DNA of 64,000 bases from Parcubacteria group bacterium (GCA_016186325.1 JACPLW010000012.1:18644-82643), one strand, 5' to 3'; numbered from the stretch's first letter, positions 22,990 to 54,069 are shown. Numbers and translations: made by a program. The notes: a model not told the origin generated them from the sequence alone.

Positions 22990-23283
22990 ATCCCCCACCC
23001 TTAAAGCATAGATTATGTTTTATGTTTATATATTAAAATCTAAAAAAGATGATAGTATCTATATTGGCTTTGCCCCAGATTTGAAAGCCAGATTTATAAA
23101 ACATAATCAAGGACTGGTTCAATCAACTAAAAATCTAAGACCATTGGAATTAGCATATTATGAAGCTTACAAATCTAAAAAAGACACTCTCATGAGAGAA
23201 AAAAGACTTAAACAATTTAAAAAAGGATATGCTTCGCTTAAAGGTCGAATAATAAACTCTTTAATGCTTTAAGGGTGGGGGAT
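22990..23283. mobile_element. 294-bp cassette: 20-bp perfect terminal inverted repeats (ATCCCCCACCCTTAAAGCAT / ATGCTTTAAGGGTGGGGGAT) flanking a GIY-YIG nuclease gene
   Basis: IRs at 22990-23009 and 23264-23283 read directly; miniature relative at 53936-54069 shares the outer 13 bp. Confidence 0.55.
23015..23272 (+). CDS. GIY-YIG nuclease family protein (YhbQ-like)
   Basis: 85 aa; 'FYVYILKSKKDDSIYIGFAPDLKARFIKH' GIY-YIG motif. Confidence 0.8.
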   Translation: MFYVYILKSKKDDSIYIGFAPDLKARFIKHNQGLVQSTKNLRPLELAYYEAYKSKKDTLMREKRLKQFKKGYASLKGRIINSLML

Positions 23284-23431
23284 GAAAAATTATTCGCGAA
23301 ACAACGCTGGAAAAGGCAAAACCGCTTTTAGGACAGGAGACAAATGGCGAGCAAGAAAAAATATAGTGGTAAGAGATATAAAAAGCATGCATAGAAGCAA
23401 GTCTCGACTGCCGCAATTAAAATCACAATAA
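23282..23431 (+). CDS. hypothetical very basic 49-aa protein; start codon overlaps right TIR (GGGTGGGGG acts as SD)
   Basis: MKNYSRNNAGKGKTAFRTGDKWRARKN...; below the ORF-track length cutoff. Confidence 0.3.
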   Translation: MKNYSRNNAGKGKTAFRTGDKWRARKNIVVRDIKSMHRSKSRLPQLKSQ

Positions 23432-23438
23432 AAATACC

Positions 23439-24290
23439 ATGGCTATCAAAAAAATAGGCCTAGCTTTAGGCGGCGGGGGAGCAAAAGGGTTTGCTCATAT
23501 TGGCGTTATTAAAGCGCTTGAAGCGGCAGGAATTAATATTGATTATATTGCCGGCACCAGTATGGGGGCTCTTATCGGAGGTTATTACGCCGCGACTAAA
23601 GATATTAAGACGCTTGAAGAATTGTCGCTCGGTATTAAAAAAAGCGACATTTTTCCCATCAGTGAAGTAATCCGCAGAAAAGACGGATCGCTGTTCCGGG
23701 GCGAATCAATAGTAAAACTCCTTGATCATCGCCTGTCTGGCATAAAAATTGAAGATTGTAAAATTCCTTTTACAGCCGTGGCTACTGATTTAAAAACTGG
23801 AGACGAAATAAAACTTAAAAGCGGAAGTTTAACAGACGCGATACGCGCAAGCATTGCCATACCTGTAGTTTTCAGTCCTGTAGAAATAGACGGGAGATTT
23901 CTTATGGACGGCGGCTTTTCAAATCCCGTTCCGGCCGATATCGTTAGAGAAATGGGGGCTGATATTGTAATCGCTGTTGATGTTTCCAGCCGTTGGATTA
24001 TGGCGCCTGACGAAATATTAAACACTCATGATATTTACTCTTTATTCAGTAATGCTTTATCGGTAATCGAGTATCAGCTTGCAAAAAACATTCTTAAAGA
24101 CGCGGATATTGTTATTCGCCCGCCGGTTTTAACCTACGACTGGATGGCATTTGATAAATCGGCCGAGATAATAAAAACCGGCCAAAAAGAACTGGAACTT
24201 AATCTTAAAGAAATAAGAAAAAAAACCGGTCATCATACCCCGCGCCGCACTACCCTTGAAAAGTTTTTTGACTTTATTATAAATAAATAA
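23439..24290 (+). CDS. patatin-like phospholipase
   Basis: 283 aa; 'GGGGAKG', 'GTSMG' (GxSxG), 'DGG'. Confidence 0.9.
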   Translation: MAIKKIGLALGGGGAKGFAHIGVIKALEAAGINIDYIAGTSMGALIGGYYAATKDIKTLEELSLGIKKSDIFPISEVIRRKDGSLFRGESIVKLLDHRLSGIKIEDCKIPFTAVATDLKTGDEIKLKSGSLTDAIRASIAIPVVFSPVEIDGRFLMDGGFSNPVPADIVREMGADIVIAVDVSSRWIMAPDEILNTHDIYSLFSNALSVIEYQLAKNILKDADIVIRPPVLTYDWMAFDKSAEIIKTGQKELELNLKEIRKKTGHHTPRRTTLEKFFDFIINK

Positions 24291-24302
24291 ATAACAATAA
24301 CT

Positions 24303-24917
24303 ATGAAATACGAACTGCCAAAACTGCCATATTCTTACGATGCACTAGAACCTTACATTGACACTAAGACAATGGAAATCCACCATGGAAAACACCATCA
24401 GTTTTATATTGATAAGCTCAACGCTGCTTTGGAAAAATATCCCGATTTAGCCGATAACCCCGCCCTTAAGCTTAAGAGCGGGGATAAAAAACTGGAGGAG
24501 CTTATAAAAGACCTGCCCAATTTAACTATGGTAGACGAAGCCGACAAAAAAGCGATTCATAACAACGGCGGGGGACACATAAACCATTCGTTTTTCTGGC
24601 AAATTATGGCGCCGCAAAAAGAAGTTGATGAAGCATTGTTTGAAGAGATTAAATCAACTTTCGGTTCGCCGGAAGAATTTAAAAAAATATTCAGCAACAC
24701 CGCCGCCACCCACTTTGGCAGCGGATGGGCTTGGCTGGCGCGCGACGAACAAAATAAACTTCAAATATATTCATTGCCAAATCATGATTTTCCTTATTTG
24801 AAAGGCCATCAGCCTCTTATAGTACTTGATCTCTGGGAACACGCCTATTATCTAAAATACCAGAACCGCCGGGCCGAATATATAGAAAATTGGTGGAATG
24901 TTTTGAAGTTATTATAG
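24303..24917 (+). CDS. sodA: Fe/Mn superoxide dismutase
   Basis: 204 aa; 'LPYSYDALEPYID..MEIHHGKHH', 'DLWEHAYY'. Confidence 0.95.
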   Translation: MKYELPKLPYSYDALEPYIDTKTMEIHHGKHHQFYIDKLNAALEKYPDLADNPALKLKSGDKKLEELIKDLPNLTMVDEADKKAIHNNGGGHINHSFFWQIMAPQKEVDEALFEEIKSTFGSPEEFKKIFSNTAATHFGSGWAWLARDEQNKLQIYSLPNHDFPYLKGHQPLIVLDLWEHAYYLKYQNRRAEYIENWWNVLKLL

Positions 24918-24923
24918 GGTTGG

Positions 24924-25041
24924 CCCCGTTAGAAGTCCGACAAGTCGGCAGACGTCGTCGGCGTCTTACTTCTAACGGGGTTGACCCCGTTAGAAGTCCG
25001 ACAAGTCGGCAGACGCCGTCGGCGTCTTACTTCTAACGGGG
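24924..25041. repeat. two tandem 57-bp GC-rich palindromic elements (CCCCGTTAGAAGT..ACTTCTAACGGGG) separated by TTGA
   Basis: Copies 24924-24980 and 24985-25041 differ at one base; second copy abuts the -35 TTGACA of the downstream promoter. Confidence 0.85.
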
Positions 25042-25069
25042 TTGACAGATTATGTAGATTTGATATAAT
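25042..25069 (+). promoter_or_regulatory. consensus promoter TTGACA-N16-TATAAT (near-twin of promoter at 8673)
   Basis: TTGACA 25042-25047, TATAAT 25064-25069; both promoters share 'tttgaTATAATg'. Confidence 0.7.
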
Positions 25070-25075
25070 GTAGGT

Positions 25076-25573
25076 AATGCTGGGAAACAGGCCGAATCCT
25101 GGTTGTAAGACAAGTTTCAGGTGCCTCGAAGAGCATGGACCTATCCCAGCAGCACATTTTTCCTTAACAAAGCCAAAAATCGGCGCGACAGTTCTGTAAC
25201 TGTCCAAATGTGCCGGAGACTAACCTTTGCGGTTTTGCCTCTGTCGCGCCGAACAAAATCCCGTTGCCACTGTCGCTGTCGCGACAGGGGAGACGCCTTC
25301 TTACCTAGCGTCTCGTGAAGCAACGGAACTAAAGTCCTGGCCACATGTCCATGCGGGGTTGGTGGTCCAGGAGCGGTGCCCTATCGCCACAAGTGAGATG
25401 GGCAAACCGATGGTAGTGAGCCTCTCGGTTAGTAATTCAACTCCTTCGCTGTTGACCTATGGTCCACGGTGAATGCGCCTCTTGGCACACCCGTGTAAAG
25501 GATGGCCGCCATGTGCCGTCTAACAGCGAAGATCGTTCCTGCCTGCGCGAGCTCACCGCGCAGGCCTTTTTTT
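25076..25573 (+). ncRNA. candidate ~500-nt structured non-coding RNA of unknown family
   Basis: GC-rich (~55%) island with multiple long-range complementary segments (TCGGCGCGACAG/CTGTCGCGCCGA, CCGTTGC/GCAACGG, GAGACGC/GCGTCTC), no convincing ORF, promoter and terminator on + strand. Confidence 0.5.
25541..25573 (+). terminator. intrinsic terminator GCCTGCGCG agctcacc GCGCAGGC + T7
   Basis: Read directly. Confidence 0.8.
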
Positions 25574-25633
25574 ATTCTTCTTAAAGAAGAATAACCCTTC
25601 CGTAGCCCCGCTTTTCGGGGCGAAGGAGGGTAC

Positions 25634-26491
25634 TCAACTATTTAATATACTTCCAACAAAATCTCTGTGGCCGTTTAGAAATTCTTCGGCAGTCAATATT
25701 TTTCCGCCCTCAAGTTGAAGTTTTTTTATAATTAAAATATTTTTGCCACATTTAATTATGATGTCGCTATTTTTCAGAAAAATTTCACCCTGCCTGCCGG
25801 CAGGCAGGCGATTTTTATTGTTACTATCATAAAAAATATCCGCTTCTATTATTTTTAAACTTTTACCATTCCACATTGTCCAAGCGCTTGGCCACGGATA
25901 ATAGCCCCTGGTCATTCTTTCAATCTCGCCTGCGCTTTTTGTCCAATCAATTTTTCCGTCTTCTTTTTTTATAATTTTAGTATAAGTCGCTTTCGAATGC
26001 TCTTGTTCAATCGGCTTAATTTTTCCTGAAATATAATCGGGAATAGTTTTTATCAAAAGCTCCGCCCCTATTTCGGCAAGTTTTTTAGAAAGAGTTTCAT
26101 AACTATCTGATTTAGAAATTAGAAATTTGGACTTAGAAATTATCGCCCCGTGGTCCATTTCTTCATCAATTTTTATTATAGTTACGCCCGTTTCTTTTTC
26201 ACCGTTTAAAATAGCCGACTGAATCGGCGAAGCGCCGCGGTATTTTGGAAGTAGCGATGGATGAACATTAATAAAACCATAGCGGGGGATATCTAAAATT
26301 TCTTTTGGCAAAATCTTTCCGTAAGCCGCTATTAAGCCCAGATCCGGCTTTAAATCTTTTAGTTTTTCTATTAAAACAGAAACCGATTCCTTAGGGTCGC
26401 GAAACATGGCTTGCGGTTCAAGCCCTGATTTTATTAACTTTTCCAAAATTATCGTCGCAAATTCCGGCGTCCCAAAAAATATAAATTTCAT
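25634..26491 (-). CDS. fmt: methionyl-tRNA formyltransferase
   Basis: 285 aa; 'FFGTPEFA', 'NVHPSLLPKYRGASPIQ'; contains 20-bp perfect palindrome CCTGCCTGCCGGCAGGCAGG at 25789-25808 (encodes 'LPAGRQG'). Confidence 0.9.
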   Translation of the reverse strand: MKFIFFGTPEFATIILEKLIKSGLEPQAMFRDPKESVSVLIEKLKDLKPDLGLIAAYGKILPKEILDIPRYGFINVHPSLLPKYRGASPIQSAILNGEKETGVTIIKIDEEMDHGAIISKSKFLISKSDSYETLSKKLAEIGAELLIKTIPDYISGKIKPIEQEHSKATYTKIIKKEDGKIDWTKSAGEIERMTRGYYPWPSAWTMWNGKSLKIIEADIFYDSNNKNRLPAGRQGEIFLKNSDIIIKCGKNILIIKKLQLEGGKILTAEEFLNGHRDFVGSILNS

Positions 26492-26586
26492 CCCGTTAGA
26501 AATCTATCTAGATTTTTCTTAATTATAAATACAATAGTAGTTGCTAATCTTAATTTAGTTTTATCTAATATAAAATTTCTAACGGG
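26492..26586. mobile_element. 95-bp AT-rich cassette with 12-bp TIRs CCCGTTAGAAAT/ATTTCTAACGGG between def stop and fmt start; flanking direct repeat ATGAA (start codon duplicated)
   Basis: TIRs read directly; same architecture at 29372-29471, 46605-46702, 49122-49218. Confidence 0.6.
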
Positions 26587-26591
26587 ATTCA

Positions 26592-27062
26592 TTATTTCTC
26601 CTCAACTACGTTAATCTTTTCCGCTTTATCAATAAACAAAATGCCGTTCAAATGGTCCATTTCATGCTGAATTACGCGAGCCAATAGTCCCTTGGCATGA
26701 ATTTTTATCGGCCTGCCGTTTTCATCCAGCGCTTTTATAGTTAGTTTTTTAGGACGAATTACCGGTCCCCAGGTTTTTTGAACCGACAAACAACCCTCTT
26801 CAAAAGGAACCAGCTCTTTTGAAAAATCCCTTATTTCCGGGTTGATGAAAACAAAAATACTACCCTCTATATCCGCGGTAAAAACCCGTAAAGAAACACC
26901 CACTTGAGGCGCCGCAAGGCCGAGGCCTTTAGCGCCTTTCATAGTTGCGACCATGTCTTTAATTAATTTCTGGATTTCCGGACTTTTTGGGTCTTTTACG
27001 ATTTCCGATTTTTTTCTTAGAACCGGATCGCCCTCTTGAATTATTTTTAACACTTTTGCCAT
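26592..27062 (-). CDS. def: peptide deformylase
   Basis: Start taken at ATG 27062 ('MAKVLKIIQEGDPVLRKKSE'); 'GLAAPQVG', 'EGCLS', 'HEMDHLNG'; the ORF-track extension to 27122 is translation through a repeat element. Confidence 0.85.
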   Translation of the reverse strand: MAKVLKIIQEGDPVLRKKSEIVKDPKSPEIQKLIKDMVATMKGAKGLGLAAPQVGVSLRVFTADIEGSIFVFINPEIRDFSKELVPFEEGCLSVQKTWGPVIRPKKLTIKALDENGRPIKIHAKGLLARVIQHEMDHLNGILFIDKAEKINVVEEK

Positions 27063-27345
27063 AGATTTGCTTGCCCTCCGTAGCTTTCTTGCCCGCCGAA
27101 GCTTTAGCGTAGGCGGGAGCAAAGGAGGATAATTCCTTTTTTAAAATCCCCATGAAATACTTGCCGCGGTCTTCGCTTTTGATTTTCCCTTGACGCCAGA
27201 CATCTTTTACCAAGCTTAGTATCCGCCTTAAAAATGATTCGTCATAGGTTTTTGCCAGACGAAAATATACCCCCTTATGCTTTTCGTCATCCAAACCCTC
27301 AACCAAATCCCACGCTAAAACTTGATGTTTTGTCGTTAAAGGCAT
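26959..27345 (-). CDS. hypothetical small protein; 3' end uncertain (reading frame runs through a GC-rich repeat and ~100 nt into def)
   Basis: Start at internal ATG 27345 ('MPLTTKHQVLAWDLVEGL...'); upstream part of track ORF overlaps ctpA start. Confidence 0.3.
   Translation of the reverse strand: MPLTTKHQVLAWDLVEGLDDEKHKGVYFRLAKTYDESFLRRILSLVKDVWRQGKIKSEDRGKYFMGILKKELSSFAPAYAKASAGKKATEGKQIYGKSVKNNSRGRSGSKKKIGNRKRPKKSGNPEIN
27070..27130. repeat. GC-rich composite hairpin element (TTGCCCTCCGTAGC..TGCCCGCC..GGCGGGAG..AAGGAGGA) immediately upstream of def
   Basis: Same family as 21891-21917; in the upstream ORF frame it encodes 'SSFAPAYAKASAGKKATEGK'. Confidence 0.7.
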
Positions 27346-27361
27346 AATATTAAAATACCAT

Positions 27362-28588
27362 ATGTTTGAGGAAAATAAAAAATATATATATTTAGCGGTT
27401 GTTACTATTGCCATAGTCGTGGCATTTGGGGCTGGTTTTGTTTTTGGATCGGTAGAGCGACTTCCTCGGCCGGTGCAGGGGATTATAAATAAAGAATTCG
27501 GCCAACCGAAAGAATTTGATTTTGGCTTATTTTGGGAAACTTTAGATAAACTTAATGAAAAGTACGTTGATAATGGCAAACTAAAAGACGACGAATTGCT
27601 TTACGGCGCTATTTCCGGATTGGTTAAAGGTGCCGGCGATCCTTACACGGTATTCTTTCCTCCGGTTGAATCAAAAAGTTTTAAGCAGGATGTTGGCGGC
27701 AGTTTTGGCGGTATCGGAGCCGAAATAGGTAAAAGAAATGGATTTTTGGTTATTATAGCGCCCCTTGAAGATACGCCTGCCCAAAAATCCGGGCTGCTCG
27801 CGGGTGATAAAATTTTAAAGATAAATAATGAACCGACCGACGATATAACCGTTGAAAAAGCGGTTACGAAAATACGCGGCGAGGTAGGCACCAAAGTAAC
27901 TCTAGCTATTTTAAGAGGTAATGACGGCACAAAAACGAAAGATATTGTCATTGAAAGAGCAATAATTAAAATCCCGATAACAAAACTTGAGGCGTTAGAA
28001 GATAACGCGATCGCTCATTTATCATTTTACAGCTTCACTTCAACAGCCCCATTTGAATTTCAAAAAGAGGCATCAAAAATTCTTGCCACTTCCGGCTATA
28101 AGGGTATAATTTTAGATTTGAGAAATAACCCAGGAGGTTACTTGGAAGTTGCGGTTGATATTGCCGGCTGGTTCCTTAATGCCGGAGATCTTGTTGCGAT
28201 TGAGGATTTCGGGAAAACCAGCGCAAAAACTGAATTTCGAGCAAGCGGCGTAGCCGCTCTTAAAAATTATCCGATGGTGGTTTTAGTTAATCAAGGCACG
28301 GCTTCGGCAGGCGAAATTTTAGCCGGCGCCCTAAGAGATAACCTAGGCATCAAATTAATAGGCGAAAAAACCTTCGGCAAGGGATCGGTGCAAGAACTGG
28401 TAAATTTTAAAGACGGCTCATCGCTCAAGGTTACCGTTGCCAAATGGCTCACGCCAAAAGGGATCTCAATTTCGGAACAAGGTTTGGAGCCAGACTTTAA
28501 GGTAGCTCCTACCGAAAAAGAACTAACAAACAAAAAAGATCCCCAGCTTGATAAAGCGGTGGAGATTCTCTTAAAAATGCTGAAATAA
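27362..28588 (+). CDS. ctpA: carboxyl-terminal processing protease (S41 family)
   Basis: 408 aa; TM anchor, PDZ, '[13 protein letters not shown]', '[11 protein letters not shown]'. Confidence 0.85.
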
Positions 28589-28610
28589 GAACGCGATACC
28601 AATATATTTT

Positions 28611-29066
28611 ATGAAAATAGTTTTACTTCAAGATGTTGATGGTTTGGGTAAAAAAGGAGACATTAAAAATGTCAGCGATGGCTACGGCCGTAATTTTCTT
28701 TTAAGAAAAGGGCTTGCTGAAATTTTAACGCCGGAAATAGAAAATCGGATAAAACTTGGGAAAGAAAAACAGGAAAAAGATGCAGTCAAACTAAAATCTC
28801 AAACAGCAATTTTAAAAGAAAATATTGAAAAACTAAAACTGGTAATTAAAACCAAAATAGGAAAAACAGGACAAGCATTTGGCTCAATAACTCCGGTAAA
28901 AATAGCAGCAGAACTTGAAAAACAGGGGATAGGGCTTCAAAAAGAGCAGATATTGTCTTCGCCGGTAAAAACCCTAGGCGAACATAAAATAAAAATAAAA
29001 CTGCCCCAAGGAATTGAGGCAGAATTGACAATTCTTATTGAATCGGAAGATACTAAAACTAAATAA
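28611..29066 (+). CDS. rplI: 50S ribosomal protein L9
   Basis: 151 aa; '[31 protein letters not shown]'. Confidence 0.9.
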
Positions 29067-29331
29067 CGTTTATTACTTTAAAAACTCTTCTGGAATTATC
29101 GTAACGTTTTGTCTTTTTATCGGTAAATTTTATGATTCCGGGACGCATGGCGTAAAGCGTGTCATCGCTGCCTTTTTTAACATTCTTTCCGGGAACCCAT
29201 TTAGTGCCCCTTTGACGCACCAAAATATTGCCCGCTTTTACCCGTTCGCCGTCAAAAAGTTTTATGCCTAATCGTTTTGATGCTGATTCTCGGCCTAATC
29301 TTGTTGAACCGGCCGATTTAGTAGTCGCCAT
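29059..29331 (-). CDS. rpmA: 50S ribosomal protein L27
   Basis: 90 aa; '[22 protein letters not shown]...[12 protein letters not shown]'. Confidence 0.9.
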
Positions 29332-29371
29332 AGATTTCTAATAGAATAACAAATTATGAATTATAAATCAA

Positions 29372-29471
29372 CCCCGTTAGAAATCTAATAAATCTTATGA
29401 GATTTAGCAGCATGTTTATATTTTATATTTAAACTATGTTTGATTGGTTAAAAAATAAATTTCTAACGGGG
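29372..29471. mobile_element. 100-bp AT-rich cassette with TIRs CCCCGTTAGAAAT/ATTTCTAACGGGG upstream of rpmA; flanking direct repeat TTGA
   Basis: Read directly; member of the CCCGTTAGAAAT TIR family. Confidence 0.6.
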
Positions 29472-29855
29472 TCAAGATACTCATACTTAATAAGGTGGGG
29501 GAAGGGGCATGAAAAAAACCTTTTAATCGGCTTAGTTTTAACGCTAGGATTTTTAATCGGACTGGGGACCGGTTTGCTTATGAATTCAAACCAAGTTTCA
29601 CCTATTATTATTGATAAAAATATCAAAGTCGGCCTGTTGGAGCCTGAAAATTACGGAACGGGGGATACAAATTCATCTAAAATAAACGCGAGTTTCGGCA
29701 ATTTTGTGGCTTCAATTAACGGCAAGGCTTATTACCCTAAAGATTGCAAATCCGCAAATGTAATTAAAGAAGAAAACAGGATCTGGTTTGAAAATGCAGA
29801 GGAAGCCGAAGCCGATGGTTATAGGCCGGCTCAAAATTGCCCTGTGAATAAATAA
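29436..29855 (+). CDS. small secreted/lipoprotein-like hypothetical; true start probably ATG 29509 with a +1 frame discrepancy in an A7 run
   Basis: Strong SD AAGGTGGGGGAAGGGG then ATG at 29509 is out of frame by one base with the long ORF; adding one A gives MKKNLLIGLVLTLGFLIGLGTGLL signal peptide. Confidence 0.4.
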   Translation: MFDWLKNKFLTGSRYSYLIRWGKGHEKNLLIGLVLTLGFLIGLGTGLLMNSNQVSPIIIDKNIKVGLLEPENYGTGDTNSSKINASFGNFVASINGKAYYPKDCKSANVIKEENRIWFENAEEAEADGYRPAQNCPVNK

Positions 29856-29913
29856 AGTGTTAAAATTATAATAGAAAAGTTAATATAGAAATATCTCAAA
29901 ATAATTTTTCACT

Positions 29914-30576: not shown

Positions 30577-30654
30577 ATAAGAAGGGGAGAAGAAGTTTTT
30601 AAATCAATACAACGTCGGACAAGATACCTTTTGCGACGTATCCCTTATTAAATA

Positions 30655-30690
30655 CCGGCCGGGCACTACCCTGGCCGGTATTTTTAATTT
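30655..30690 (+). terminator. intrinsic terminator ATACCGGCC gggcactaccct GGCCGGTAT + TTTTT
   Basis: Read directly. Confidence 0.65.
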
Positions 30691-31047: not shown

Positions 31048-31081
31048 TAATTTAATAATACCACGCGCGGTGTTTTAACGC

Positions 31082-44964: not shown

Positions 44965-44983
44965 ATGAATATTAGCATCGCAC

Positions 44984-46047: not shown

Positions 46048-46097
46048 AATGAGTCCCGCGCTGGCGGGACGAGCGCGCGAGAAAAATGATTTAAATT

Positions 46098-46604
46098 TTA
46101 ATTTTTTAATTCGTTATAATTCGGCAAATCTTCTAACTTATTTAAACCCAAATGTTTTAAAAAATCAAAAGATACCTTGTAAATATAAGAGCGGCCGTCT
46201 TCCGGATTATTTTTTTTCTCTACAAGGCCGCGAATGGCCAAGTTCTGTAAAATAAAGCTGCAATTGACGCCGCGTAAATTTTCAATTACCGCGCGGCTTA
46301 CTGGGCCGCGATAAGCAATAATCGCCAAAGTTTCCAAAGCGGCTTGGGATAGGTCTTCCTCAAAATCGCTCTTAATCAATTTTTTAACCGCTTCTTCCGA
46401 TTCCGGCGCCGTTACCAGCTGAACTTTATTATCGGAAAAAACCAAACGAAAGCCGCGATTGTTTGTTTCGTAATCGCTTGCTAATATGTTTAATTCATTT
46501 TCCAGTTCTTTTTCAGGAATCTCTAAAATTTCTGATAATTTTTTAAAACCGATAGGATGTCCGGAAGTAAACAACAAACTTTCTATTATTGAAATAAGAT
46601 TCAT
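46098..46604 (-). CDS. scpB: segregation and condensation protein B
   Basis: 168 aa; 'IIESLLF', 'AALETLAIIAYRGPVSRAVIENLRGV'. Confidence 0.85.
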   Translation of the reverse strand: MNLISIIESLLFTSGHPIGFKKLSEILEIPEKELENELNILASDYETNNRGFRLVFSDNKVQLVTAPESEEAVKKLIKSDFEEDLSQAALETLAIIAYRGPVSRAVIENLRGVNCSFILQNLAIRGLVEKKNNPEDGRSYIYKVSFDFLKHLGLNKLEDLPNYNELKN

Positions 46605-46702
46605 CCCGTTAGAAATTTAATAAAATTATAATTAACTAAATTATTATTAAGCAATTGTTTTTGCAATGCGATATTAAATGAGAAAAATAGATTTCTAACG
46701 GG
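46605..46702. mobile_element. 98-bp AT-rich cassette with TIRs CCCGTTAGAAAT/ATTTCTAACGGG between scpA stop and scpB start; ATGAAT duplicated on both sides
   Basis: Upstream ATGAAT contains scpA TGA stop; downstream ATGAAT is scpB M-N. Confidence 0.65.
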
Positions 46703-46704
46703 AT

Positions 46705-47508
46705 TCATAAATTATCGCTGACTTTTTTTACTTTAATCTCTCCGAATAATTTATCTTGGGAAATTTCTAAAACTCTTTTTCTAAAAAGCATTAAAATCGC
46801 AATAAACGCCAAAACAACATTAATCTTTTCTGCTTTTGAGGTCGAACCACTTGTGGTGAGCAAAGTCGAACCACTTGTGGTGAGCAAAGTCGAACCACTT
46901 GTGGTGAGCAAAGTCGAACCAGAAATTTCGTTAAATGACGCTTCGGCCGCCGTACTTACTCTGCCCATAAGTTCTTCAATTTTTTCTTCCAAACTCATTA
47001 TTCTAACAAGGCCTTTTTCTTCCAATTTTTCAATCTGGGGCAGAGTCTTTAAAAATAGTTCGTAGATGTTTTTGAGATCTTCTATCGTAATACTTTTAGG
47101 CGGATAGAAGGTGGTTTGTAGGTTTAAAAAGTATTCTCTTGAAAAATAAGAATTGCGGCCCTTTGTCCATTTTCCCAGCATCTTCGCCATTGTTTTGATT
47201 TCCTGATACGCCTTTAACCGATTTTGCAGGTCTTTTATATCATCTTCTTCTTCAACGCTTAAAACAAGATTGGGCAAAAGCGAACGCGATTTTATAAGAA
47301 TCAGGCGGCTTGCAACAACCAAAAAATCAGCAAGTATTCTTTGATACTCGCTAGATACATCGCTTTTTATTTTTTTTAGATATTCCAAAAACTGATCCGT
47401 AACCTGTGCCAAAGAAATTTCGCCTATGGCCATCTTTTTTTCTTCTATTAAAGAAATTAGAAGATCTAACGGACCGGTAAATTTTTCTAAACTGACTTTA
47501 TATTCCAT
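46705..47508 (-). CDS. scpA: segregation and condensation protein A
   Basis: 267 aa; 'FTGPLDLLISLIEEKK'; C-terminal region contains a tandem octapeptide repeat. Confidence 0.85.
   Translation of the reverse strand: MEYKVSLEKFTGPLDLLISLIEEKKMAIGEISLAQVTDQFLEYLKKIKSDVSSEYQRILADFLVVASRLILIKSRSLLPNLVLSVEEEDDIKDLQNRLKAYQEIKTMAKMLGKWTKGRNSYFSREYFLNLQTTFYPPKSITIEDLKNIYELFLKTLPQIEKLEEKGLVRIMSLEEKIEELMGRVSTAAEASFNEISGSTLLTTSGSTLLTTSGSTLLTTSGSTSKAEKINVVLAFIAILMLFRKRVLEISQDKLFGEIKVKKVSDNL
46841..46922. repeat. 24-bp tandem repeat x3.4 (GTCGAACCACTTGTGGTGAGCAAA) inside scpA, encoding (TTSGSTLL)x3
   Basis: Perfect copies at 46841, 46865, 46889 read directly. Confidence 0.85.
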
Positions 47509-47539
47509 AATTTATTGCTAGAAAAAATAATTACATATT

Positions 47540-47655
47540 TATTCTCTAAGCGGGTTATGAGCGCGAAGCGGGCATGGTGTCCCGCGAAGCGGGACGAGCG
47601 AGCGCGAATCCCTGAGCGAGCACGCTGGGCGAGCGAGGAAAGCGAGAGAATAAAT
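47540..47655. repeat. GC-rich repeat-laden intergenic block (GCGCGAAGCGGG, GTCCCGCgaaGCGGGACGAGCGAGCGCGAA, GAGCGAG repeats) bounded by IR TATTCTCT/AGAGAATA
   Basis: Between aspS stop and scpA start. Confidence 0.5.
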
Positions 47656-47678
47656 ATGGAATTATTGTTGTATTTTGA

Positions 47679-49121
47679 TTATTTTTTTACAGAAATATGT
47701 AATTCTTTTAACTGTTTTTCGTTAACTTCTGATGGTGCGCCCATCAGCAAATCTCTATCATCGCCGGTTTTGGGAAACGCAATAACTTCCCTAATTGACT
47801 GCTCATTCATTAAAATCATCATGAGCCGATCAAGCCCAAGCGCAATGCCCCCATGCGGTGGAGCGCCATATTCAAAAGCGCGAAGCATATGGCCAAAACG
47901 CGCCTCAATGTCTTTTTTCTCAACTCCTAAAACTTCAAACATTTTATTTTGCAATTCTCTTTTATGGATTCTGATGCTTCCACCGCCTATTTCACTGCCA
48001 TTCAAAACCAAGTCATATGCTTTTGCTTTTAATTTTTCCGGATGAGTCATGTCGATATCAGCGGGTTTGCCCGCCAAAATTTCTTCGAAATTTCCGGCGG
48101 GCGCAGTAAACGGATGGTGCGATGAAACCCATTTTTTTTCGGTTTTGGAATATTCCAATAACGGCATATTCACTACCCAGGCGAAAGCCAATTCATCGGG
48201 ATTATTTTTACCTGCCCCGTAGGGTCGCGAAGCGACTCCTTCGGGGTCTTCGCGCAAATCCGGTTTATCGGAATTATATCTTGCCATTACTTCATCATAA
48301 TCCATTCTCGGAAACGGCTTCTTCCAAATTTTCTTTTCTGGAAAAATTGTTTCAACAAGTTTAATCATCATTCCTTCAATCAAATCCAAGACGTCGTCTT
48401 CCTCAACAAAACTCATTTCAACATCAAGCTGGGTAAATTCCGGCTGGCGGTCTCCCCTGCTATCTTCATCTCTAAAACAGCGAGCAATTTGAAAATATCT
48501 CTCCAAACCGGCGACCATTAAAAGCTGTTTGAATTGCTGGGGCGACTGGGGTAAAACATAAAAATTACCCGGGTGCTTTCTGGAAGGCACAACAAATTCC
48601 CGCGCTCCTTCGGGCGTGCCCTTGGTTAAATCCGGTGTTTCAACTTCTATAAATTTTTGTTCTTTTAGATAATTATTTAAAAATCTTAAAACTTCAGAGC
48701 GCTTCGTTAAGTTTTTCTGCATTTTTGGGTCGCGCAAATCAAGATAGCGATATTCCATCCGCAACTCCTCCCCTACTTTATCTTTTTCTCCAATTTCAAA
48801 AGGTGGAGTTTTGGCCTCATTTAAAACTTCCAGTTCTTCGGCGGCAAGTTCAATTTCGCCGGTTTCCAGTTTTGGGTTTTTCAGATTTTCCGGCCGCTCT
48901 TTTACCGTGCCTTCAATTGAAACAACCCACTCGGAGCGAAGCTGGTCGGCTTGTTTTCGCAAATCTTCGTTTCCTGCAAAAACAACCTGGAGCAAGCCGG
49001 AGCGGTCTCTTAAATCAATAAAAATAATCTTGCCGTGGTCGCGGCGCACATGAACCCAGCCGGAAACCTTAACCTTCTCTCCCACTTTTGAAATTGTTTC
49101 GTTTATAAATATGCGTTTCAT
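47679..49121 (-). CDS. aspS: aspartyl-tRNA synthetase (short, non-GAD type)
   Basis: 480 aa; OB fold, motif 2 'FRDEDSRGDRQPEFTQLDVEMSF', motif 3 'GGIALGLDRLMMIL'. Confidence 0.9.
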   Translation of the reverse strand: MKRIFINETISKVGEKVKVSGWVHVRRDHGKIIFIDLRDRSGLLQVVFAGNEDLRKQADQLRSEWVVSIEGTVKERPENLKNPKLETGEIELAAEELEVLNEAKTPPFEIGEKDKVGEELRMEYRYLDLRDPKMQKNLTKRSEVLRFLNNYLKEQKFIEVETPDLTKGTPEGAREFVVPSRKHPGNFYVLPQSPQQFKQLLMVAGLERYFQIARCFRDEDSRGDRQPEFTQLDVEMSFVEEDDVLDLIEGMMIKLVETIFPEKKIWKKPFPRMDYDEVMARYNSDKPDLREDPEGVASRPYGAGKNNPDELAFAWVVNMPLLEYSKTEKKWVSSHHPFTAPAGNFEEILAGKPADIDMTHPEKLKAKAYDLVLNGSEIGGGSIRIHKRELQNKMFEVLGVEKKDIEARFGHMLRAFEYGAPPHGGIALGLDRLMMILMNEQSIREVIAFPKTGDDRDLLMGAPSEVNEKQLKELHISVKK

Positions 49122-49218
49122 CCCGTTAGAAATTTATTTAAATAAATAATGTTAATTTTTAATCAATATCCGACATTTGGCATATCCCGCAGACTAATAT
49201 TTATAGATTTCTAACGGG
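49122..49218. mobile_element. 97-bp AT-rich cassette with TIRs CCCGTTAGAAAT/ATTTCTAACGGG abutting aspS start; ATGAA duplicated
   Basis: Read directly. Confidence 0.6.
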
Positions 49219-49268
49219 ATTCATAATAGACAAATTCTACCATATCAAATAATAAAAATTCAAATCGC

Positions 49269-49296
49269 TTGACAAAAAACCAAAAGATTGTAACAT
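49269..49296 (+). promoter_or_regulatory. promoter TTGACA-N16-TAACAT then SD TAAGGAGG for 49347 gene
   Basis: Read directly. Confidence 0.5.
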
Positions 49297-49346
49297 AGAA
49301 CCCGTCGATAGTAGGTCCCTTCACAATTAAAGTTAAGGAGGCGGTA

Positions 49347-50318
49347 ATGAATAAATTCACAGCGTATTTCTTTCTGTTTGTTACCCTACTTCTGCCAAAT
49401 CTCACGCAAGCCAGCTCTTTTGATGCAAAAATCGAGTTTAGCAACGCTAAAAAACTTTGTCTCGCAAAGCTCGGGGAAGATAACCTAAATCAATGGGAAA
49501 AAATCACCCTTGAGGACGGTACAATCATTGTCTGTGGAAAAGGTGAGAAAACGCCGTGGAGTGAGACAACCGGCCCAGAAATTACGGTACTTACTGAAAC
49601 CGGAGGTCGTACCTGCGCCTCAACGGCTTATAACCTCTCTGGAAATTTGCAGACCCTTGGCATATCTGCCGGAGAAACCGCGAGAACACTCATTGTCATT
49701 ATGGGTAGTGTTCTTGAAAAGATGAAGGAAACCGGTAGGTATGATTACGAAATTACTGACGCGCTTTTCCGCCAAATAAACGAACTTCTGCCGTCTCTTG
49801 ATTGGATAGTCAAAGACAGCGGCTGGTATATTTTGGGTGAAGCAGATAGTGCGCTCTCGCGGCTCTCATACATGGGACGTCTTTACGGCAAGCGTTACGG
49901 CATGCAAGTCATATCACTTTTCAACCAACTCATAGTAGATGGCAATGCGCGCTACCGAGATAACGAAGCGTGGTCGTTGTATTATAGAAAAGAAATCCTA
50001 AAGAATTTATACTATGCGATTAACGGCCTGATTCTTATTTCGGATACATTGCCGGACTGGGAAAAACCCACAAAACAGGAAATGAAAGAACTTGCCAAGA
50101 CATACCTTGAGTTTATAAAAGCTTACCCAGAAAAACACGGCTGGCTTTCAAAAAAAGAAATAGAAGTATTGGCCGATACCGACCCAGACATTCTTGCGGA
50201 AATTAGGAAGCTGGAAACGAAACGTGAAGAGACGGCTAACCTGAAAAACGTTACGGAAGAAGCAGAAAAAGAGTGGCAGAAAAAACAACCGGACATCATT
50301 GATACCGTTGAAAATTAA
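49347..50318 (+). CDS. secreted hypothetical protein (323 aa), visibly higher GC than neighbours
   Basis: Signal peptide 'MNKFTAYFFLFVTLLLPNLTQASS'; canonical SD; terminator hairpin AACCGCCTCGCAAGGCGGTT follows. Confidence 0.55.
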   Translation: MNKFTAYFFLFVTLLLPNLTQASSFDAKIEFSNAKKLCLAKLGEDNLNQWEKITLEDGTIIVCGKGEKTPWSETTGPEITVLTETGGRTCASTAYNLSGNLQTLGISAGETARTLIVIMGSVLEKMKETGRYDYEITDALFRQINELLPSLDWIVKDSGWYILGEADSALSRLSYMGRLYGKRYGMQVISLFNQLIVDGNARYRDNEAWSLYYRKEILKNLYYAINGLILISDTLPDWEKPTKQEMKELAKTYLEFIKAYPEKHGWLSKKEIEVLADTDPDILAEIRKLETKREETANLKNVTEEAEKEWQKKQPDIIDTVEN

Positions 50319-50326
50319 ATTTAAAA

Positions 50327-50352
50327 AAATAACCGCCTCGCAAGGCGGTTTA
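50327..50352 (+). terminator. hairpin AACCGCCTCGCAAGGCGGTT + TATCTT
   Basis: Read directly; weak T tract. Confidence 0.45.
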
Positions 50353-50521
50353 TCTTATGTACCTAAACTATCAAGAAGCTTTCTTAACCAGCTCTCATCT
50401 TCGGCCTTCTTTTTGTTAAACAGTAGTTACTTCACCCTCTGTAAATTTTCTATCACAATTATCGCAAGCGGTTTTATCGCCCCCATATCCTTCCAAGTCC
50501 TCGTAGTCCATTTTTTCCTCC

Positions 50522-51022
50522 TTACCGCTCCTCAAACTGTCTGCCAACGATATTTTCCGGATGCTCTTTATTAAAAAGCTTTTCACTGTCACAAAGTAAA
50601 TAAACATTCGCTATCCCAGCTTCAATCATCTTATCCCAACAATCCTTACAACACCACCAATGGCCCCAGAGATAAAGATCGGCATCGATCGTTTCATCAA
50701 CTCTTTGTCGCTTAACATCTGCGATCGCCTTTGCTTCGCTGTGATTTTTAGGATGACAACCTTCACATAATTCGTAACCCTCGCCGCTCTTACAACCCAA
50801 AAGTACTCTCTGGCATTGATGCTTTTTATGATAATCGCTGCCGTTTGCTCCCATGCCAATCATTACATTGTTTTTAACAATAACCGCCGCTCCGGGCATC
50901 GTTTTATCCAGCGAATACCTTTTAGCAAACATCCGCACACACGCCATATATTTGTCATCGTCGGACACGTATCTTATTTCTTTTCCTTCAGGTAAATATG
51001 GATATTGAATTTTATTTTCCAT
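50522..51022 (-). CDS. CMP/dCMP deaminase family zinc-binding protein
   Basis: 166 aa; 'HSEAKAI' (H.E), 'CKDCWDKM' (C..C). Confidence 0.75.
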   Translation of the reverse strand: MENKIQYPYLPEGKEIRYVSDDDKYMACVRMFAKRYSLDKTMPGAAVIVKNNVMIGMGANGSDYHKKHQCQRVLLGCKSGEGYELCEGCHPKNHSEAKAIADVKRQRVDETIDADLYLWGHWWCCKDCWDKMIEAGIANVYLLCDSEKLFNKEHPENIVGRQFEER

Positions 51023-51112
51023 TAGCTGATCCTTCTCATTGAAATAAAAAAGAACTAGTATTAAAATACTACAATATGACGACGTCTTGACACAATAAGA
51101 AATTTTGTGTCT

Positions 51113-52199
51113 TTATTTTTTTAACTCTGCTTCTATAAATTCGTCTAAATCGCCGTCTAAAACTTTTTCAACTTGGGAAGTTTCATAATCGGTGCGATGG
51201 TCTTTTACCATTTGATAAGGATGAAACACATAGGAACGGATTTGGGCACCCCATTCGGCTGATTTTTTAATTTTTTTAACTTTAGCTAATTCCACTTCTT
51301 CTTTCTTTATTTGTAGCGCGTGAAGCTTGGAAGCTAAAAGCTGCATGGCTTTATCGTGATTTTTCGATTGGGAACGTTCTGTTTGGACAGCCACGGCAAT
51401 TCCGGTTGGTAAATGAGTAATTCTGACCGCTGTCTCGCGCTTATTTACGTTTTGCCCGCCGGCACCGGAAGATCGGAATGTATCAACTCTTAAGTCCTCT
51501 GTCTTTATATTAATATCTTTAGATTCAATTTCAGGCACTACTTCCAAAGCGGCAAAAGAAGTGTGGCGCAATTTATTTGGTGAAAATGGAGAAATCCTCA
51601 CGAGGCGATGAACACCGGCTTCATTTTTTAAATACCCGTAAGCGTAAGAACCGCGCACTTCAATAGTGGCGCTTTTTACTCCGCCTTCTTCACCTAAAGA
51701 TTCGCTAAGAATGCCGGATTCCCATCCTCGAGATTCCACAAACCGGCTGTACATTCTTAGTAACATCGATGCCCAATCTTGGGCATCGCGGCCTCCAACT
51801 CCTGCCGAAATTGTTAGAATGGCGTTATTTTTATCGTATTTTCCAGAAAGAAAAACTTGAAGTTCCGCTTTAGAAAATCTTGCTTCAAGAGCGGCAAATT
51901 TTTCCGCAGTTTCGTTTAAAAGTTTTTTGTCGGATTCTTTTTCTCCCAAAGTGGCAAGTTCCAAAATTTCAACGGCTTCGGTTTCAAAATCGCTCCAAGC
52001 GTGGATTTCTTTTTCAAGTTCCGAAATTTCTTTTTGAACCAATTTGGCTTTATCCTGATTTTTCCAAAAATCAGATTTTTCGGTTTCTTTTTTTAATTCT
52101 TCAATCCTGGATTTCTTTCCGGGTAAATCAAAGACGGTCCGCAGTAATGCGGGATTTAGTGAGTAATCCTTGAATTTTTTCTTTTAAGTTCTCTATCAT
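51113..52199 (-). CDS. prfB: peptide chain release factor 2 with programmed +1 frameshift
   Basis: Frame 0: MIENLKEKIQGLLTKSRITADRL then CTT-TGA-T (plus 52128-52133); +1 frame continues DLPGKKSRIEELKKE.. into the 309-aa ORF containing 'GGQNVNK'. Confidence 0.85.
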
Positions 52200-52295
52200 A
52201 TTGCAATTATATTATCACAAAATTGATAAAATTACAAATAATGGTTCGGCTTCTTTCAACTCCACTCAGAACAAGTTACTCACCACAAATAAAAT

Positions 52296-52330
52296 CCCTC
52301 CCGCAATGCGGGAGGGATTTTATTTAAAAT
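52296..52330. terminator. bidirectional terminator TCCCTCCCGC aat GCGGGAGGGA flanked by A/T runs
   Basis: Read directly. Confidence 0.7.
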
Positions 52331-52339
52331 ATCTTGTTA

Positions 52340-53128
52340 TTACTTTGCCCAAATGACAAATGTGAAGAGTTTTTCACCGTTGCCGAGATTTCGCTCGTAT
52401 AGAGAATTATTGCCTCGCGCGTCTTGTTTCACTGCCTTGCCCCAAGCTGACGGGTCGTTAAGGTCTATATCCTGACCGACAGTTGCGGGCTTACCATTGC
52501 CTCCGCCGTCAACTGAAAAAAGAGCTGTATCAAAGCCGTCTAGATGGGCGTAGATTTCTGCGAGCTCATCATAATCGTGCTGATTCGGATGTTGGTTGGT
52601 TGACGGATCACTGGTGTAATCCATGCAAGTGCCGAGATTGGGATTGTCAAAAATTTCATCCTGATGGTCAAGCCCCAAAGTGTGGCCGACTTCCTGGCAC
52701 ATGACTAAATTTCTCCATTCCGGAGTATTGTAGGTGGCAGTATTAAAATAAGAATCATTTACTTTTACCGCACCTTTAGTTATATGCTCGCCATTTACCC
52801 AAATCTGGGCAACGCCGAGCCAGCCATTAAATCCATATTTTTCACTGCACACTTCTACCCTGCCGGTGGTTGCCTTGCAGGTGCGCGGCTTTGTTTTGCC
52901 CAAATCAACAACGGTATCAAGAACGTCAGAAATACTCCAATCGCTTGCAGTTGTTGCAAGATAGCTGTCCCATGCCAAAGAAACATTATCGCCGAGTTTC
53001 AATGTGAACGGATTTGAAGTGCGCGCCCAGTGGTATCCATTCCAAGAATGAGTTGCGCTTACAACTGACACCGCAACAAAAACTGCCACAAGAACCGAAA
53101 AGACTATTACATATTTTCTTATATTCAT
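52340..53128 (-). CDS. secreted zinc metalloprotease (metzincin-type HExxHxxGxxH)
   Basis: 262 aa; signal peptide; 'MCQEVGHTLGLDHQDE'; higher GC than genome. Confidence 0.7.
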   Translation of the reverse strand: MNIRKYVIVFSVLVAVFVAVSVVSATHSWNGYHWARTSNPFTLKLGDNVSLAWDSYLATTASDWSISDVLDTVVDLGKTKPRTCKATTGRVEVCSEKYGFNGWLGVAQIWVNGEHITKGAVKVNDSYFNTATYNTPEWRNLVMCQEVGHTLGLDHQDEIFDNPNLGTCMDYTSDPSTNQHPNQHDYDELAEIYAHLDGFDTALFSVDGGGNGKPATVGQDIDLNDPSAWGKAVKQDARGNNSLYERNLGNGEKLFTFVIWAK

Positions 53129-53202
53129 AATAATTTATTTAATTTAATTACATAATAATATTAAAAAGAAAGACTGTCAAAAATGGGAAAGTCTAATCTT
53201 AG

Positions 53203-53274
53203 AGCCGCCCCTCGGAATCGAACCGAGGACCTACTGTTTACGAAACAGTTGCTCTACCACTGAGCTAGGGCGGC
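53203..53274 (-). tRNA. tRNA-Thr (anticodon CGT)
   Basis: Minus fold: GCCGCCC/GGGCGGC acceptor, D-arm GCTCAGTGGTAGAGC, anticodon loop UU-CGU-AA, T-arm CTCGGTTCGATTCCGAG. Confidence 0.85.
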
Positions 53275-53277
53275 ATA

Positions 53278-53348
53278 AGCGGGTAAGGAGAATCGGACTC
53301 CTGTCTCAACCTTGGGAAGGTCGTATACTACCATTGTACTATACCCGC
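53278..53348 (-). tRNA. tRNA-Gly (anticodon CCC)
   Basis: Minus fold: GCGGGTA/TACCCGC acceptor, anticodon loop UU-CCC-AA, T-arm AGGAGTCCGATTCTCCT. Confidence 0.8.
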
Positions 53349-53520
53349 CTTCGCCCTCCGAAGCTAAAGCTTCTGCGGGCTACGGCGGGCAAAGCCCGCT
53401 ATAACCCATTTTAGCGAAGGAGGGTTCGTCCCGCCTCGGCGGGGCTTCGGTCGCACGCCGCCATAGCTTTGGCGACGGCGCGCGGACAAGCCCGCTAAGA
53501 TCACGAAGGCGAGATTTTCA
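53349..53520. repeat. GC-rich block of nested hairpins upstream of tRNA-Gly/Thr (GCCCTCCGAAGC..GCGAAGGAGGG, GGGCTACGGCGGGCAAAGCCC, CCCGCCTCGGCGGGG)
   Basis: Shares motifs with 27070-27130 family. Confidence 0.5.
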
Positions 53521-53523
53521 ATT

Positions 53524-53934
53524 TTATTTACCGAAAAAATAATACCACCATTGTTTGTAATTAGGTAAGTTTGTGTTGCTAACGGGCGATGCGGAGATTG
53601 TTTCACTGCCCGACGACGTTGCGGCGGTCGGCAAAATGACAACAACTTTCTCACCTTCTTTTTTATAATTTAACCTCACCCGCGCTTCTTTTTCTAAATT
53701 TGAAGAGCTCTTATAATAATCGAGTAATTTATCCATATCTTCTTTTTGTTTATTAAGACTCATAATTTCCGCGTTGAGCCGATCCAGGTCTATTTTAACT
53801 TGATAGCGGTGATAAAGGTTCTGAAAAATACCGATAATTAACGCGATTGAAATCGGAACAAGAAAAATAAAAAATATCTTTGATTTTATAAGACGCTTAT
53901 AAATTGAAATATTGTCTTTTTCTATTATTTTCAT
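53524..53934 (-). CDS. septum formation initiator FtsB/DivIC-like
   Basis: 136 aa; TM, coiled coil, 'EKEARVRLNYKKEGEKVVVI'. Confidence 0.6.
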   Translation of the reverse strand: MKIIEKDNISIYKRLIKSKIFFIFLVPISIALIIGIFQNLYHRYQVKIDLDRLNAEIMSLNKQKEDMDKLLDYYKSSSNLEKEARVRLNYKKEGEKVVVILPTAATSSGSETISASPVSNTNLPNYKQWWYYFFGK

Positions 53935-53935
53935 T

Positions 53936-54069
53936 ATCCCCCACCCTTTGTGGATTTGCTTTATTAATTATAAATTTGTATAATTCAAGTCAACCGTTTT
54001 ATTTATTAGATTTTTTAAGAGATAGTATAACTACTAAGCAATTATAATTATCCACAAAGGGTGGGGGAT
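53936..54069. mobile_element. 134-bp miniature element: 20-bp perfect TIRs ATCCCCCACCCTTTGTGGAT/ATCCACAAAGGGTGGGGGAT around ~95 bp AT-rich core; outer 13 bp identical to the GIY-YIG cassette TIR
   Basis: Read directly; abuts the ftsB-like start codon. Confidence 0.55.

Follow-up and report, generated by a model that had tools for sequence, protein, structure and literature searches.

Why should a small nuclease gene lie between two perfect inverted repeats, and why should the same repeat ends recur around a short piece of gene-less DNA? The question arises in a stretch of 64,000 nucleotides (nt) from a Parcubacteria group bacterium (GCA_016186325.1, JACPLW010000012.1:18644-82643), the whole of which was analysed and is called the window below; element counts for the home genome cover this window only. 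It contains a cassette (22990-23283), in which a gene for an 85-aa GIY-YIG nuclease is boxed by 20-bp inverted repeats, and a 134-bp gene-less miniature (53936-54069). The sequence comparisons support placing both in one family of inserted, evolutionarily mobile DNA. We give a probability of roughly 55% to the fuller reading, that both are copies of one family of tiny inserted elements with the nuclease as the mobility enzyme.

The complete cassette comprises 294 bp of the plus strand: a left arm, a 5-nt spacer, the GIY-YIG open reading frame (ORF; 23015-23272) and a right arm that lies over the stop codon. The C-rich left arm (ATCCCCCACCCTTAAAGCAT, 22990-23009) and the G-rich right arm (ATGCTTTAAGGGTGGGGGAT, 23264-23283) are exact reverse complements over 20 bp, with 254 nt between them. 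The right arm encodes the C-terminal residues of the nuclease (..ML*) and includes its TAA stop, and its terminal AT forms, with the next G, the ATG of a 49-aa basic protein (23282-23431, plus strand). The GC content of the cassette is 30%, compared with 39% for the window. In the miniature, the left arm (ATCCCCCACCCTTTGTGGAT, 53936-53955) and the right arm (ATCCACAAAGGGTGGGGGAT, 54050-54069), both read on the plus strand, are also exact complements over 20 bp and are separated by 94 AT-rich nt; in the short form only the arms remain, with this filler of about 95 nt between them. It fills the entire divergent intergenic space between a DivIC/FtsB-like gene (53524-53934, minus strand; Pfam PF04977) and the gene of a 35-aa membrane peptide (54068-54175, plus strand).

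All four arms share the same outer 13 bp. At its right end, each element reads AAGGGTGGGGGAT followed by G, which gives the ATG of the 49-aa and the 35-aa ORF, respectively. We re-examined the sequence and found that the coordinates and sequences given in the original prediction for both repeat pairs and ORFs were all correct. That prediction had overlooked a third start codon: on the minus strand, the left arm of the miniature (..GGGTGGGGGAT) precedes the ATG of the DivIC gene at 53934 (AAGGGTGGGGGAT-A-ATG; AAGGGTGGGGGATAATG), which starts 1 nt outside the left end of the miniature and 4 nt from its C-run. The 13-mer occurs in the window four times exactly and once with one mismatch. With at most two mismatches allowed, there were five matches against a shuffle mean of 1.07, and none of the 100 shuffles reached five. 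The fifth match (44580, one mismatch) was considered as a solo arm before an ATG and rejected, as it has no partner and lies within the coding sequence (..GPKGGGLSMK..) of a gene that we take, by eye from the translated sequence, to be MraY-like. The miniature is present unchanged in an independent Logan assembly (L006) and is therefore not an assembly artefact.

Relatives were found with and without the elements at the same sites. A metagenome scan with the patatin protein encoded next to the cassette retrieved three contigs (L099, L100 and L101) that keep the gene order dnaX (minus strand), small basic ORF (plus strand), patatin. Their products were 79-86% (dnaX), 62-86% (49-aa micro-ORF) and 67-85% (patatin) identical to those of the window, and at this locus the three contigs had neither a GIY-YIG gene nor the arm motif. 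The aligned empty-site junction reads ..GTATAAAATAAAGAT|ATGAAAAATTATTC.. (..AAAGAT|ATGAAAAAT; empty site in short ..ATAATGAAA..), and the junction in the window reads ..GTATAAAGTAAAAAATA[ATCCCCC...GGGGGAT]GAAAAATTATTC.. (..AAAATA[ATCCCCC..GGGGGAT]GAAAAAT). Thus, the 294-bp cassette was placed exactly on the start codon. From the alignment, the terminal AT may either have been brought by the element or represent a 2-bp duplication.

Similarly, the ftsB-like upstream region was compared in relatives identified through their DivIC orthologues. An orthologous miniature is present in L179/L180 (an Azambacteria metagenome-assembled genome; DivIC identity 89%), with 39 of the 40 arm positions identical and an interior identity of about 80%. 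It is absent from L181 (DivIC 81%) and L182-L184 (68%), where the start codons of the 35-aa ORF and DivIC are 36 and 23 nt apart. Two sites occupied in L018, by a cassette between the genes of histidyl-tRNA synthetase (HisRS) and MreB and by a miniature between those of a penicillin-binding protein and GreA, are in turn empty in the window. Presence/absence polymorphism at orthologous sites was thus found for the cassette as well as the miniature, and on these alignments both are real insertions relative to close relatives.

The original prediction also proposed that the right ends of the two elements create the micro-ORFs. This part has to be given up. Conserved counterparts of both micro-ORFs occur in relatives that have no element at the site: the 49-aa one has the identities given above, and the 35-aa one has orthologues in L179, L181 and L182, whether the miniature is present or not. 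Hence the two are host genes that predate the insertions, and neither was created by an element. Judged from these sequences, the insertion settles on an already existing ATG and preserves it.

A -10-like TATAAA box of the host (22974-22979, plus strand) lies in a block that aligns with the relatives, where the conserved TATAAA is only 8 nt from the ATG of the micro-ORF; this spacing suggests a leaderless or short-leader mRNA, according to our reading of the sequence. The box probably drives the micro-ORF/patatin operon and now the cassette too, and a promoter scan called no promoter near the cassette or at this box. Read by eye, the cassette is downstream of the host promoter and co-oriented with the displaced gene. 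A TTG-N17-TATAAT sequence was likewise seen by eye inside the miniature, where the promoter scan did not call it.

Homologous cassettes were found in L007, L008-L017, L018 and L019-L027, with DNA identities of 76-87%. The proteins, 79-91% identical, are encoded before a glycosyltransferase gene (L007), between a glycoside hydrolase family 57 (GH57) gene and a kinase-like gene (L008-L017) and between HisRS and MreB (L018). These cassettes have the same arms at the same distance in unrelated gene contexts. Over 294 bp, the L007 cassette matches that of the window at 87% identity, and the flanks of the two are random with respect to each other. In all, the close homologues occupy at least five unrelated junctions.

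The left arm is conserved across loci and covaries with the right arm. Matched changes are seen, for example, in L018 (CCCTCACCC/GGGTGAGGG) and in L008 (AAAGTAT/ATACTTT). Among 14 window-type arm pairs, 98.9% of the cells were paired and 8 of the 20 pairs had changed on both sides, a level of covariation not reached in any of 500 shuffles. These comparisons show that arm complementarity is kept, by selection or by homogenisation. A scan of one genome per species added 80 further loci with 46-78% identity, mostly from Patescibacteria and some from Omnitrophota, Elusimicrobia and others. Boxing by repeats was common among the homologues: 63 of 78 homologue loci with an intact ORF had an inverted repeat scoring at least 10 (median 15). 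The threshold equals the maximum around shuffled homologue flanks, which was 10; the window cassette and the miniature both scored 20. The outer core of the arms is conserved (CCCC[CT][AC]CAC.. / ..GTG[GT][AG]GGGG), and the inner part, beside the start and stop codons, varies between loci and covaries. The family amounts to 2,615 clusters at 50% identity (E<=1e-10). A search of a plasmid collection for close relatives gave no matches, and phage collections and IMG/VR gave only distant ones (two from Staphylococcus phages and two weak viral matches). The family is thus essentially absent from these collections, and nothing points to a phage or plasmid as vector.

These observations bear on the simplest alternative, in which the repeats are resident expression signals of non-mobile host genes, a strong Shine-Dalgarno sequence and its complement, and their pairing is incidental. 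TAAGGG-N6-ATG is indeed plausible as a ribosome-binding arrangement, and in the window every G-rich end that borders a host gene, three in all, is beside a start codon, two forming the ATG and one lying 1 nt upstream of it. However, this explanation is contradicted by the empty sites in relatives, by the occurrence of the same unit in unrelated contexts and by the 20/20 complementarity, which has been maintained with compensatory changes. In addition, other arm families, including the second one described below, have no Shine-Dalgarno-like sequence, and most genes of the window do not use one: the upstream regions of 60 long ORFs were mostly AT-rich and lacked it. We consider this explanation very improbable.

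Arm-only elements of 78-139 nt occur within 5 kb of cassettes in five other genomes (L008, L018, L022, L025 and L026). The L018 miniature (9333-9471) is in front of GreA, and that of L026 lies at 2982-3120. The miniature of L022 (5264-5397) adjoins a truncated right arm of the cassette (GGGTGA|TCCCTCACCC). In L025 (4866-4995) it is nested between the left arm of the cassette and the cassette ATG, which explains the N-terminally extended protein P0074. The L008 miniature (439-516; also in L009-L013) has 78 nt, or 26 codons, and is read in frame inside a GH57 gene. Aligned with a paralogue or with PDB 1k1w, this gene shows homology only up to the left edge of the miniature, which is suggestive of an in-frame insertion. 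The core variant of the miniature is that of the resident cassette in 6/6 genomes including the window, two with CCCCCACCC and four with CCCTCACCC. In the window and the five other genomes, therefore, the miniatures share their terminal inverted repeats with a gene-bearing element of the same genome, as miniature inverted-repeat transposable elements (MITEs) do.

Beyond the arms and an approximate length, the miniatures have nothing in common. Their interiors are unrelated to each other, both within the window and between genomes, and to the cassette; the only aligning pair is the orthologous one of the window and L179. Interiors shared by descent from one progenitor, a further feature of MITEs, were thus not found, and the miniature is no simple internal-deletion derivative of the cassette. 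The autonomous/non-autonomous pair described in the original prediction therefore stands as one mobile family, on the grounds of the empty sites, the unrelated contexts and the miniatures in five further genomes, and falls as far as derivation by simple internal deletion is concerned.

A second arm family is more numerous in the window than the first. Four miniatures of 99-102 nt with ATCCCGTTAGAAAT.../...ATTTCTAACGGGAT arms lie at 26490-26588, 29371-29472, 46603-46704 and 49120-49220, and short hairpin forms at 11204-11261 and 24917-25042. Exactly these arms box another 85-aa GIY-YIG gene in L065 (2326-2609), in front of a tRNA-Pro gene. Thus, there are two independent arm families, each with a gene-bearing and a gene-less form. 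An enzyme gene flanked by inverted repeats that also form gene-less inverted doublets is the arrangement seen in RAYT/REPIN systems.

The abundance of gene-less forms raises another possibility, that arm-only hairpins are primary and moved by an unlinked enzyme, and that the GIY-YIG gene is a passenger, similar to a free-standing homing endonuclease gene, which colonised the hairpin loop. Gene-less miniatures and loop-less palindromes do exist (L062; window 11204-11261), the window has five miniatures and two hairpin sites for a single cassette, and nested and tandem arrangements occur in L025 and L022. On the other side, each arm family has its own GIY-YIG subfamily, and no gene for an alternative enzyme accompanies these elements. 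In most subfamilies, moreover, the last codons of the ORF are within the right arm and the left arm covaries with them, from which it follows that gene and arms evolved as one unit. We regard a passenger gene as improbable. The composite arrangements themselves span 5255-5400 in L022 and 4844-5000 in L025.

The 85-aa protein matches PF01541 with E=2e-14 and 54 bits (cutoff 22.6), which places it in the GIY-YIG superfamily. Among 20 homologues, Y5, Y16, R26 and E62 were invariant and H30 was at least 90% conserved. By analogy with I-TevI and Slx1, the four invariant residues would be the catalytic Tyr of GIY, Tyr of YIG, Arg and Glu. Searched against PDB, the family profile matched only UPF0213 structures, 1zg2 (1e-9) and 1ywl (3e-5). 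An AlphaFold2 model (mean predicted local distance difference test score, pLDDT, 87) has the three-stranded sheet and helices of the GIY-YIG fold, and Foldseek ranked 1zg2 first, followed by Slx1 (6sei, 4xlg, 7cq2), the I-TevI catalytic domain (1ln0) and the UvrC N-terminal domain (1yd6). By profile and predicted structure, the protein is a single-domain nuclease of the Slx1/YhbQ-like type (UPF0213). A search of Pfam and NCBIfam gave only GIY-YIG-type matches; recombinases of the DDE, HUH, serine or tyrosine type were not among them. The family of Slx1, a structure-selective nuclease, includes YhbQ and YazA (PMC7017083).

We infer that the GIY-YIG protein is the mobilising enzyme. The stems formed by the arms dominate the predicted RNA and DNA folds (z-scores -8.3 and -6.1), and movement might proceed as follows. 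Both arms would pair within one strand, with the element as the loop of a long stem, and the structure-selective nuclease of Slx1 type would cut the stem at its base or else cut a matching target. The element could then be copied into a new site by repair or recombination of the host, and arm-only miniatures would be moved in trans by the nuclease. The G-rich arm (TAAGGG-N6-ATG, with the ATG 10 nt after the nuclease stop) may keep the displaced host gene translated, which would explain why only insertions in this register survive.

In the window-type family, 16 of 18 G-rich ends form an ATG (GGGAT+G), and wherever it was checked a genuine gene, directed away from the element, started at this ATG. 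Beyond the C-rich end, the fourth base outwards was T in 20/20 cases, usually within TAAT. Where the element lies in an operon, the reading frame of the upstream gene extends into the left arm and terminates at the TAA of the arm. Three of the four second-family miniatures lie at operon junctions that read ATGAAT|CCCG...CGGG|ATGAA on the gene strand, where they abut the ATG of a minus-strand gene. These flanks look like a duplicated ATGA stop/start overlap by which both genes would be kept intact.

Other subfamilies adjoin RNA genes. In 13 loci a tRNA gene (Ala, Val, Tyr) has the G-run of the right arm as its 5′ end, and in the Ala and Val loci inspected, a second copy of 10-19 nt from that 5′ end immediately precedes the left arm. 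The tRNA-Pro cassette of L065 has the same kind of duplication, of 10 nt. In L037 (5253-5703) the cassette is directly before an RNase P RNA gene, and the right-arm G-run is the P1/P2 5′ strand. A location of this cassette in the P3 loop was considered and rejected, since the cmscan alignment uses the right arm as that strand and lacks P3. In L085 an arm adjoins a conserved AGGAAAGTCCG motif that suggests adjacency to RNase P RNA, with no match reaching the threshold.

Several further observations were made at such loci. At L032, L034, L036, L038, L041, L056, L064, L065, L068, L079 and L092, inspected over about 60 nt on both sides of the nuclease gene, the last bases of the right arm are the first 3-5 nt of the tRNA (Ala, Val, Pro), and the upstream repeat of 10-19 nt, sometimes with part of an arm, is a dead tRNA 5′ fragment. 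At L062 (about 5260-5300), a perfect loop-less palindrome of 24 nt (CCCCTCTGCTCG|CGAGCAGAGGGG) separates the tRNA from a duplicate of the tRNA-Ala 5′ end and resembles an arm-only element at its minimum. In some subfamilies (L071, L073 and L097, viewed from the right arm to 25 nt beyond it), the right arm continues into an oppositely oriented tRNA gene, entering it at the 3′ end (..GCGCCCGCCTGGACTCGAACC..). In L182/L183/L184 (5950-6350), an 80-aa GIY-YIG paralogue lies between a 20-nt tRNA 5′ fragment with a GC-rich hairpin and a complete tRNA gene. An apparent presence/absence difference of a GIY-YIG gene between L182/L183 and L184 was discarded, because the DNA is identical and only the gene calling differs.

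The proximity to RNA genes gives some weight to a different role of the arms. They might act in RNA, where a stem of about 20 bp in the host transcript would loop out the insert, either for RNase III processing, on the model of rRNA intervening sequences, or as an insulating stem that brings the upstream stop and downstream start codons together. The cassette would then spread by horizontal transfer or recombination, and the nuclease could serve, for example, in RNA/tRNA metabolism or repair. A stem of about 20 bp is a substrate of RNase III, and many arms have just this size. The stem is the dominant feature of the RNA fold, and the cassettes lie inside transcription units, co-oriented with the downstream gene, or abut the 5′ ends of tRNA and RNase P RNA genes. 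Unrelated miniature interiors are also easier to understand if only the stem matters. Moreover, GIY-YIG ORFs occur in non-intron insertions at stem-loops of rRNA genes of the candidate phyla radiation (CPR; PMC11270868), and fusion or linkage to tRNA methyltransferases has been noted for Slx1-like proteins of prokaryotes (PMC1564403). However, arm mismatches across loci show no excess of G.U over A.C (about 16 against about 15, by our own count), and the arms of the window miniature flank divergent genes, so that one transcript need not hold both. A role in RNA would also leave unexplained the spread of identical arms to new sites and the matching variants of miniatures and cassettes. Taken as a replacement for movement by the nuclease it is unlikely, if worth keeping in view; the two are compatible rather than exclusive.

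Several results weigh against mobility driven by the nuclease. The catalytic domain takes up all 85 aa and leaves no room for a DNA-binding domain, unlike in known GIY-YIG homing enzymes. Transposition of whole units would give shared interiors, which the miniatures do not have. The possible target-site duplications differ, being at most AT in the first family, ATGAA in the second and 10-19 nt in the tRNA type, and thus the footprint is not uniform. Near-identical copies at two sites of one genome were not seen, and the four second-family miniatures have no cognate cassette inside the window. Finally, the equal numbers of G.U-type and A.C-type mismatches in the arms do not separate a role in DNA from one in RNA.

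Among known systems, the closest analogue is the relationship of RAYT and REPIN. In both cases a single small nuclease or transposase gene lies between inverted copies of a short repeat, the same repeats form gene-less inverted doublets in intergenic DNA, each repeat family has its own enzyme subfamily, and a hairpin-forming single strand is the presumed substrate. The enzyme, however, is of the GIY-YIG (Slx1/YhbQ-like) type here and of the HUH/Y1 IS200/IS605 type there. Furthermore, the arms here are not palindromic REPs, the doublet interiors are mutually unrelated, and the elements lie in exact register on start codons or 5′ ends of RNA genes.

Free-standing GIY-YIG homing endonuclease genes (seg of phage T4; I-TevI type) have the same catalytic domain, and they too are small selfish genes between host genes with presence/absence polymorphism between relatives. 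I-TevI has about 245 aa, compared with 85 aa here. Its C-terminal DNA-binding domain, joined by a linker, is absent from our protein, and the elements occupy many unrelated sites instead of one homing site. They also have perfect flanking inverted repeats and gene-less derivatives, and they are essentially absent from phage collections. MITEs such as the Correia elements of Neisseria and the palindromic elements of Rickettsia resemble the miniatures in their size (100-150 bp), their terminal inverted repeats and their positions in or beside genes. They can alter the expression of neighbouring genes, and the L008 copy read in frame inside a gene (439-516) recalls the Rickettsia elements in particular. 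However, those MITEs share an interior and their cognate enzyme is unknown or of DDE type, whereas only arms and length are shared here and a cognate nuclease gene boxed by the arms exists. With unrelated interiors, and with possible target duplications that are not uniform, the miniatures are not strict MITEs. Nor is the cassette a classical insertion sequence, as its only gene encodes a GIY-YIG protein and not a DDE, HUH, serine or tyrosine recombinase.

Slx1, YhbQ and YazA (UPF0213) are closest to the nuclease by sequence profile and fold, and Slx1 cuts branched and stem-loop DNA. Unlike our protein, Slx1 has a RING/PHD domain and needs Slx4, and the YhbQ-type genes are treated as chromosomal genes of unknown function. 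To our knowledge, YhbQ-type proteins have not been reported as repeat-boxed or mobile. The insertions in rRNA genes of CPR bacteria, compared here by their description (PMC11270868), are from the same bacterial group, carry GIY-YIG ORFs, belong to neither the group I nor the group II introns, and sit at stem-loops of structured RNA genes. The description deals with rRNA genes, and boxing repeats, miniatures and start-codon or tRNA targets are not mentioned in it.

The original prediction was not aware of any small element with terminal inverted repeats that uses a GIY-YIG nuclease for mobility. Likewise, our full-text search, whose coverage of the literature was incomplete, found no description of a bacterial GIY-YIG element bounded by such repeats. 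A small inverted-repeat element with a gene-less partner and built on a GIY-YIG gene thus looks undescribed. Our proposal that it represents a new class of prokaryotic transposable element, whose sole enzyme is an 85-aa Slx1-like GIY-YIG nuclease acting on the stem of its own repeats, is tentative, and we hold it at somewhat below even odds.

If the nuclease does move the element, one catalytic domain of 85 residues and two 20-bp arms would suffice, far below the presumed minimum for transposition or homing, and GIY-YIG enzymes would take their place beside those of the DDE, HUH, tyrosine, serine and Cas1 types in moving DNA elements. At about 290 bp, the element would be the smallest self-contained mobile element known in bacteria, and the nuclease with its arm-only partners would be the GIY-YIG counterpart of RAYT/REPIN. 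Preservation of host genes would be built in, through start codons or tRNA and RNase P RNA 5′ ends that are rebuilt on landing, and would provide a natural case of an insertion that brings its own means to keep the displaced gene expressed. The widespread small UPF0213/YhbQ-type proteins would gain a function, and the numerous, oddly placed, small stand-alone GIY-YIG genes would be explained. The annotation of CPR genomes is affected in any case, by element-encoded C-termini on upstream genes, by rebuilt start codons and tRNA 5′ ends and by leftover tRNA 5′ fragments.

Three minor observations concern the window. A Logan contig of the same organism (L005) starts 6 nt before the right arm of the cassette (its position 1 is window position 23258), and in the same-organism Logan assemblies no gene is on record for the exact GIY-YIG product; the start at this arm could reflect low coverage or a strain-level difference at the site. 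A near-perfect palindrome of 50 nt (AATTATCGATGTCCGACATCGATAA|TTATTGATGTCCGACATCGATAATT) lies at 12163-12212. A perfect 19-bp hairpin at 52287-52325 (AAATAAAATCCCTCCCGCA/TGCGGGAGGGATTTTATTT) looks like a bidirectional terminator.

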